From: a virus
Virus record (IMG/VR): IMGVR_UViG_3300045971_000528
Coordinates: 1 to 64,000 of that record
Direction: 5' to 3' (one strand)
DNA: 64,000 nt
Shown here piece by piece: positions 23,899 to 24,215 of the stretch. The notes under the pieces are model-generated. The model was not told where the DNA came from. It did not search any database and saw only the letters and a program-made list of their open reading frames with translations. Position numbers and translations under genes: made by a program. How positions within the stretch are numbered: position 1 is the stretch's first letter; each line of letters opens with the position of its first letter.

Positions 23899-23941
23899 AA
23901 AAACAAACCAGGGTCCTTGCTTTCGCGAGGACCCTGGTCTT
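23899..23941 (-). terminator. Attenuator terminator upstream of the tRNA array
   Basis: ACCAGGGTCCTCGC-GAAA-GCAAGGACCCTGGT followed by TTGTTTTT. Confidence 0.85.
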
Positions 23942-23962
23942 TGGTTGTTTGACTGGAGCTTG

Positions 23963-24085
23963 TTAGGCTTTTGTCTCCCCGAAGACCAGGGTTGGTGTAT
24001 CAATCTCATGGCGTTCAAAGCGCACGACATTATTCTGGCGTTGCTGCCAGAACATCGTGGTTTTGATCGTCTTGAAGGTGAACAT
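23963..24085 (-). CDS. Putative attenuator leader peptide MFTFKTIKTTMFWQQRQNNVVRFERHEIDTPTLVFGETKA
   Basis: 40-codon ORF between the promoters and the terminator; codons 32-35 are complementary to the terminator 5' arm; codons 1-30 match array anticodons. Confidence 0.8.
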   Translation of the reverse strand: MFTFKTIKTTMFWQQRQNNVVRFERHEIDTPTLVFGETKA

Positions 24086-24119
24086 TTGCTTGATCTCGGT
24101 TAGGAAGAATTCGTGAAGT

Positions 24120-24215
24120 TATTTATACGGAATCCCCGATTTGCATCAAGTGTTCCGTAAGTTGATAGAGCAATTATACACTAGTCGGAGGCAATGTACA
24201 CAGAAGAAGTGTAAC
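24120..24215 (-). promoter_or_regulatory. Tandem promoters for the leader/tRNA array
   Basis: TATAAATA at 24120-24127; GTTACA-N9-TGTACA-N16-TATAAT at 24173-24215. Confidence 0.75.

Follow-up and report, generated by a model that had tools for sequence, protein, structure and literature searches.

Leader peptides control the transcription of a number of enterobacterial operons, among them those with the trpL, hisL, leuL, and pheL leaders, and some of these leaders are multivalent, the thr leader sampling Thr and Ile and the ilvGMEDA leader sampling Leu, Val, and Ile. The pheST attenuator of Escherichia coli, which uses the pheM leader, acts on the gene for an aminoacyl-tRNA synthetase and responds to a single amino acid. 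T-box riboswitches bind uncharged tRNA directly, without translation. Leader-peptide attenuators of amino-acid operons are treated further in PMC1183508 and PMC3082878. In Anabaena sp. PCC 7120, the trn operon, a long tRNA array, is induced by translational stress, and it is controlled at the promoter level through direct repeats and the repressor TrcR (PMC8421152, PMC10272220). Phage tRNAs are presented in three papers as a counter-defense against tRNA-cleaving systems (PMC10264068, PMC11464382, PMC11555353); the destruction of host tRNAs gives a phage a reason to supply replacements, and the papers concern what the tRNAs do.

The locus described here lies in front of a tRNA array on a virus contig. 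We consider it probable, at roughly 0.6, that it is a leader-peptide (ribosome-mediated) transcription attenuator, and the tRNAs of the array are probably made when ribosomes run short of them. The mechanism would be of a known kind; what appears to be new is the presence of tRNA genes downstream, the multiplexed sensor, and the phage setting. The closest anatomy is that of the thr and ilvGMEDA type of leader, with a short 5' ORF, a terminator just downstream, and an antiterminator helix that a ribosome could block. As in the amino-acid operon leaders, there is a hairpin inside the ORF, and the putative regulatory codons match the product of the operon that would be controlled. Unlike those leaders, this one would control tRNAs rather than biosynthetic enzymes, it is found in a phage, and its ORF samples 13 amino acids with 1 to 5 codons each, compared with one to three amino acids and tandem runs of codons.

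The likeness to pheM-pheST would be that leader-peptide attenuation acts on a gene of the translation apparatus, so that decoding speed feeds back on the supply of charged tRNA; the differences are that the tRNA genes themselves lie downstream and that the sensor is multiplexed. As in T-box systems, a terminator/antiterminator switch would report tRNA status and control translation-related genes, but the frame of leader 1 shows coding-type constraint, and a cmscan search of positions 16000 to 26000 (E ≤ 1) matched neither a T-box nor any other Rfam family to leader 1. Among published systems, the closest in function is the Anabaena trn operon, an accessory array of tRNAs whose expression is low and is turned on when translation is impaired, although neither attenuation nor a leader peptide is mentioned there (PMC8421152, PMC10272220). 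An earlier note on this DNA, made from its letters alone, had proposed the attenuator and knew of no phage tRNA operon under such control; full-text literature searches likewise found no account, for phages or other organisms, of tRNA genes controlled by a leader peptide.

Contig and tRNA gene setting

The window, that is, the whole stretch of DNA that was analyzed, is the first 64 kb of one virus contig of 106,081 bp, which has a GC content of ~54% and carries most of its genes on the minus strand. The contig encodes 56 tRNAs and one tmRNA, and its protein genes include Ro60/TROVE (positions 1429 to 3141 of the window), a CCA-adding-type nucleotidyltransferase, and homing endonucleases within the tRNA region. 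Because the related records in IMG/VR are rated 12 to 19% complete and one homolog of the leader peptide sits on a 339-kb contig, the contig is a fragment of a giant phage genome. The matching public sequencing runs are from metagenomes of ponds, wastewater, and wetlands, and no RNA run was among them. At 85127 to 85201 of the contig, adjoining the tmRNA at 85513 to 85846 (L002), is a tRNA whose anticodon is CUA; it is of the amber-suppressor type, and ARAGORN called it Pyl.

The features of the locus, all on the minus strand and listed in the direction of transcription, are as follows.

24173 to 24200, minus strand: sigma-70-like promoter (TGTACA, 16 nt, TATAAT), with 10 of 12 matches and hexamers kept in relatives
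24120 to 24127, minus strand: TATAAATA motif, resembling the late promoter of phage T4 and unchanged in four relatives
23963 to 24085, minus strand: leader ORF 1, 40 codons plus stop, intact in five related contigs and in 28 peptide homologs
23996 to 24085, minus strand: codons 1 to 30 of the ORF, the putative sensor part, with only amino acids served by array 1
24031 to 24054, minus strand: 9-bp hairpin within the ORF (codons 11 to 19), an RNAalifold consensus paired in 4 of 4 sequences
23982 to 23992, minus strand: candidate antiterminator strand (codons 32 to 35), complementary to the 5' arm of the terminator
23897 to 23941, minus strand: intrinsic terminator 1, with one mismatch in its 16-position stem, a GAAA loop, and a T-tract
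23733 to 23896, minus strand: structured 5' leader that separates the terminator from the first tRNA, ~85 nt of it invariant in four relatives
17476 to 23732, minus strand: tRNA array 1, 25 canonical tRNAs for 13 amino acids

The ORF, the terminator, the antiterminator, the two promoters, and the hairpin in the ORF were all found where the earlier note had placed them. Array 1 is interspersed with homing-endonuclease ORFs and with tRNA-like or Y-RNA-like elements. ORFs of the DUF559/restriction-endonuclease-like and GIY-YIG types at 22175 to 22834 and 20616 to 21548 (minus strand) are probably homing endonucleases, and these may explain array shuffling. Rfam models reported a partial tRNA-like match, a 122-nt tRNA-like element, and YrlA (Y-RNA-like) at 21447 to 21505, 18242 to 18363, and 17492 to 17612; the YrlA match is weak and below threshold, and it fits the presence of the Ro60 gene. 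ARAGORN also called a Gly-CCC tRNA at 18975 to 19046 that has its anticodon at an odd position and that the Rfam tRNA model does not see.

A run of paralogous genes lies upstream of leader 1 (24322 to 28584, minus strand), with divergent middles and a shared C-terminal motif that ends in K-K-L-G. The 179-amino-acid protein encoded upstream of leader 1 had a single homolog (P0001, 93% identical) among 5.8 billion proteins, and it had no relatives in the phage collection, IMG/VR, or the JGI metagenomes.

The first 30 codons of leader 1 use only amino acids served by array 1

Codons 1 to 30 of leader 1 encode exactly 13 amino acids (M, F, T, K, I, W, Q, R, N, V, E, H, and D), and A, C, G, L, P, S, and Y are absent. 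As the earlier note had pointed out, these are the same 13 for which array 1 has its canonical tRNAs. Array 1 decodes all 29 of codons 2 to 30, and array 2, elsewhere on the contig, decodes 11 of the 29. When the composition and codon usage of the phage's own proteome are used, the probability that 29 of 29 codons would be readable by array 1 is 2e-7 to 4e-7. Counting five in-frame codons upstream of the ATG, the run extends to 35 codons, and it is the longest of its type in all six frames of the 106-kb contig, the runner-up having 25; the maxima in 30 simulated genomes ranged from 15 to 22. The second-longest run, at 85908 to 85982, adjoins the tmRNA and is inside a 206-amino-acid ORF.

A finer level of matching was also considered. 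The earlier note had extended the match to isoacceptors, a claim that did not hold up, since given the peptide and the codon usage of the genome neither codon diversity (P = 0.31) nor anticodon coverage (P = 0.35) adds anything beyond amino-acid identity. Given the composition, it is only mildly unusual that 19 of 20 anticodons are covered (P = 0.03), and the presence of all 13 amino acids is not unusual (P = 0.12). Each amino acid is represented in the sensor part by just 1 to 5 codons, and tandem runs are absent; because of this departure from the classical tandem arrangement, sensitivity to a mild shortage is doubtful.

The Shine-Dalgarno sequence of leader 1 is weak or variable, with GGAG 9 nt upstream in two relatives and a degenerate sequence in the window. 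A Shine-Dalgarno sequence was found in 34% of the crudely called ORFs of this phage, compared with a background of 18%, and in its weakness leader 1 parallels approximately two thirds of the phage ORFs. Searches with Pfam and NCBIfam profiles (E ≤ 10) gave no family matches for leader 1, the second leader described below, or two homologs, and neither leader matched the curated leader families (trp, thr, his, leu, and ilv).

Promoters and the segment before array 1

The sigma-70-like promoter upstream of leader 1 is one of seven such sites on the minus strand of the contig, the plus strand having none, and its counterpart in the related contig L012 is a consensus TTGACT-N17-TATAAT. The ORF starts 34 nt after the TATAAATA motif. 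Across the whole contig, there are 46 copies of the TAAATA core on the minus (coding) strand and 2 on the plus strand, and the motif often directly precedes a gene. This strand bias fits a phage promoter of the T4 late type. In its full form, TATAAATA, the motif agrees with the consensus of T4 late promoters, and it may be active as a promoter.

In the interval that runs from the terminator to the first tRNA of array 1, no sigma-70-like promoter was found. TAAATA motifs are present inside the array at 22861, 21325, 20429, and 18972, and these may drive parts of it independently. The segment at 23733 to 23896 had no matches in Rfam. Its ~85 invariant nucleotides are unchanged in four relatives despite proteins that have strongly diverged, and on their 3' side, just before the tRNA, are covarying helices with further compensatory changes in L014 and L015. 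This segment could direct RNA processing, bind a protein, or act as an unrecognized promoter.

Alternative RNA structures at the end of leader 1

Terminator 1 lies 21 nt past the stop codon of leader 1. Its stem spans 23940 to 23905 and its T-tract 23904 to 23897, and it ranks second in stability among the terminator-like hairpins on the minus strand of the contig. Three of its stem pairs show compensatory changes among the relatives. The candidate antiterminator strand at 23992 to 23982 is a perfect 11-nt complement of 23941 to 23931, and the duplex has a predicted stability of -23.4 kcal/mol, compared with -13.4 ± 2.5 kcal/mol in shuffled leaders, none of which (0 of 1,000) reached the observed value. 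Over six sequences, 95.5% of the antiterminator cells are paired, and there are two compensatory pairs, both in L015. In L014 the outer stem of the terminator has been lost, yet the outer 5' arm still pairs with the antiterminator strand.

The folding check that the earlier note had suggested came out in favor of its model. A transcript cut before the 3' arm of the terminator is predicted to form the antiterminator and the full transcript to form the terminator. The minimum-free-energy folds with a masked ribosome always retained the terminator. Because the thermodynamic minimum always includes the terminator, the switch would have to be kinetic and does not show in equilibrium folds. From the geometry, a ribosome at the end of the ORF would block the antiterminator. 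The hairpin of codons 11 to 19 is a candidate RNA-polymerase pause hairpin, at which pausing might occur.

A second leader precedes an array with a complementary set of tRNAs

Array 2 is located outside the window, at 65829 to 75284 of the contig (the locus L001:1829-11960 covers the array and its leader region), and it serves Ser, Leu, Cys, Pro, Gly, Ala, and Tyr together with Asn, Thr, Ile-UAU, Met, Lys, and Val-UAC. The earlier note had raised the question of whether a complementary tRNA cluster would have its own matching leader, and one is present upstream of array 2.

75905 to 75804 of the contig: leader ORF 2, 33 codons with a GTG start

A sigma-70-like promoter and a good Shine-Dalgarno sequence lie ahead of leader 2, and 21 nt after its stop codon is terminator 2, a strong hairpin whose loop is GAAA and whose tail is rich in T. 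Array 2 reads 25 of codons 2 to 28, or all 27 if four-codon reading is allowed for the Pro and Ala tRNAs with U34, versus 3 of the 27 for array 1. A Fisher test of the match of both leaders to their own arrays gave a value of 7e-13. The two leaders have no sequence similarity except in the -10 box of the promoter, and since this is all that they share, they represent two independent cases. We regard the observation made in the earlier note as confirmed, and it lies well beyond what chance would produce. In both leaders the composition rule stops where the best partner of the 5' arm of the terminator starts, at the 3' end of the ORF. The predicted antiterminator duplex of leader 2 has a stability of -19.5 kcal/mol, which was reached by 21 of 1,000 shuffles.

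Two sigma-70-like promoters are situated between terminator 2 and the first tRNA of array 2, one of which shares its type with the promoter before leader 1. Because these promoters are downstream of the terminator, leader 2 would add to the transcription of array 2 rather than gate it strictly. Homolog searches with the leader 2 peptide were empty, DNA patterns from terminator 2 had a single match (L011) that proved unrelated, and a query with the 131-amino-acid protein upstream returned nothing, so that relatives of leader 2 and array 2 were not found by these routes. Array 2 was also absent from the records that contain L006, L012, L014, and L015.

Relatives of leader 1 and selection on the ORF

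Relatives of leader 1 were recovered in two ways. DNA patterns taken from terminator 1 and the segment after it identified L004, L006, and L012, and a search with the back-translated peptide identified L014 and L015 (with L016 as an identical sequence). Peptide-based searches find intact ORFs only and therefore carry an ascertainment bias; among the three contigs found by DNA outside the ORF, the leader ORF was intact in all three. From the promoter to the first tRNA, the related contigs are 77 to 84% identical, compared with at most 68% for the flanking protein genes or sequences that cannot be aligned. The arrays of all five related contigs have tRNAs for the same 13 amino acids only, with gene order and copy number shuffled. 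Homologous arrays that keep the terminator and lack the ORF and its composition, which the earlier note had named as evidence against an attenuator, did not turn up: the related contigs keep all of these elements. A further match to the terminator pattern, L005, lies beside an ordinary gene and was rejected as due to chance, and P0013, the peptide homolog encoded on the 339-kb contig, had no matches in the phage collection. Another long contig, of 158 kb, encodes P0014.

L012 is contig JAUMAI010000012, which has a coverage of ~1 and was placed in a GTDB metagenome-assembled genome (MAG) labeled Pirellula sp. The other tRNA clusters in this MAG resemble host operons, and the leader is absent from 400 other genomes of the same order. 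The placement of L012 in a planctomycete MAG is probably a binning artifact and is at best a weak hint of the host; with the coverage of ~1, it gives no host assignment.

The protein search yielded 16 clusters containing 28 homologs of 40 to 42 amino acids, which together with the window peptide form an alignment of 29 rows. In this alignment the N-terminal third is variable, the core is nearly invariant, and the residue preceding the antiterminator can be almost any. All 13 amino acids are present in the sensor part of all 29 peptides. Residues outside the set of 13 account for 29 of 787 sensor positions (25 Ser, 3 Ala, and 1 Leu, with no Gly, Pro, Tyr, or Cys), and the stray Ser, Ala, and Leu residues of the relatives fall in the variable N-terminal part. 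As judged from these peptides, the composition rule is strong and not absolute, the 29 of 29 in the window being the best case. The ten tail residues of the homologs are rich in Leu, Gly, and Ala.

The sensor part has a pN/pS of 0.16 (pS 0.42, pN 0.067; six DNA sequences), and the other five frames range from 0.34 to 2.7. The antisense and +1 ORFs were ruled out as the conserved frame on this basis, the leader frame being the lowest of the six. In the last ten codons pN/pS is 1.07 and pS is low, consistent with the expectation that the tail codons are constrained as RNA and not as protein. Every indel in leader 1 consists of whole codons for amino acids of array 1, and metagenome contigs aligned to the window contributed one added Thr codon and one added Lys codon. 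Variable sites numbered 4, 3, and 9 at the three codon positions, a third-position excess with p = 0.14 for which there are too few sites for significance. The core is conserved position by position beyond what sampling of the 13 amino acids would need, and some of this excess could stem from the two hairpins of the RNA or from a function of the peptide itself.

Proposed mechanism and alternative explanations

The model starts from features that the sequences display, namely, an ORF that is conserved, restricted in composition, and constrained in one frame, and two alternative helices that covary. In the attenuator model, transcripts from the sigma-70-like promoter or the TATAAATA motif would enter the 40-codon ORF, of which codons 1 to 30 would serve as the sensor and codons 32 to 35 as the antiterminator strand, with the terminator 21 nt past the stop. 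A ribosome moving at normal speed would cover the antiterminator as RNA polymerase makes the terminator, and transcription would stop. If the ribosome stalled at any sensor codon for which the charged cognate tRNA is short, the antiterminator would be free to pair with the 5' arm of the terminator, and polymerase would continue via the conserved 5' leader into array 1. The outcome would be an any-of-13 gate that exerts negative feedback on the phage's own tRNA supply, and the unrelated leader 2 would act likewise for the complementary tRNA set of array 2. We infer translation of the ORF, its coupling to transcription (coupling in the host being assumed), the dependence of the switch on stalling, and the biological trigger, for which loss of host tRNAs, tRNA-cleaving defenses, and starvation are candidates. 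As far as computation goes, the folds, leader 2, and the relatives all support the reading of the locus that the earlier note had put forward.

The explanation that comes nearest to competing with this is that the attenuator is a general sensor of translation stress, in which any slowing of ribosomes, for example, by ribosome-targeting toxins, antibiotics, or host shut-off, leads to read-through and the amino-acid match is secondary. Such a sensor would have an architecture identical to that of a tRNA-specific attenuator, the single codons per tRNA give weak specificity, and the isoacceptor-level match is not significant; the Anabaena trn array, moreover, is induced by general translational stress (PMC8421152). 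However, it leaves unexplained why two unrelated leaders should be written in complementary sets that match their own arrays, and why each of the 29 variants should retain the full set of 13 in its sensor part, with G, P, Y, and C excluded. We therefore regard it as unlikely.

It is slightly less likely again that the ORF is an independent gene for a small protein or a regulatory nascent peptide, with the hairpin as its terminator and the array transcribed by leaky read-through or from an unrecognized promoter. The near invariance of the core at the amino-acid level in the 29 aligned sequences and the low pN/pS of the sensor part would be natural in a small-protein gene, the invariant 85-nt segment past the terminator is otherwise unexplained, and the main promoters of array 2 follow its terminator. 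However, the last ten codons show no such protein-level selection, yet they are constrained as RNA and pair with the terminator arm; no Pfam or NCBIfam family was matched; the variable N-terminal third changes in sequence and retains its composition; and leader 2 matches its array in composition without any peptide homologs.

A noncoding RNA element or chance ORF, in which the unit from promoter to terminator would act as a small RNA or would simply terminate the upstream operon and the amino-acid pattern would reflect coincidence and shared ancestry, could draw on the high nucleotide conservation, the antisense and +1 frames that are also open over the core, and the bias of peptide-based searches toward intact ORFs, but it is highly improbable in view of the composition statistics and the reciprocal leader 2, the leader frame having the lowest pN/pS of the six, the intact ORF in all three relatives found by DNA outside it, and the restriction of indels to whole codons.

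Implications for phage tRNA arrays

If the attenuator reading is correct, tRNA genes would regulate their own expression through the speed at which their codons are decoded, and the attenuation logic of trp and his, in which one to three amino acids are sensed, would be widened to an any-of-13 gate. The element is ~230 nt long and self-contained, and it could serve as a compact biosensor of tRNA availability. The expression of phage tRNA arrays would be tied to the loss of host tRNAs, including that caused by tRNA-cleaving defense systems. We tentatively suggest, while thinking it somewhat less probable than the reverse, that in giant phages every tRNA block has its own leader-peptide attenuator written in its amino acids, so that exactly the failing sets are replaced, for example, after the action of host anticodon nucleases. 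With such block-by-block attenuators, the phage would follow in real time how each of the 20 amino acids is being decoded, and it would possess a translation-coupled damage sensor and a homeostat for the virus-encoded tRNA pool. The finding would bear on the reason that phages carry tRNAs and on the way in which large tRNA arrays are regulated.
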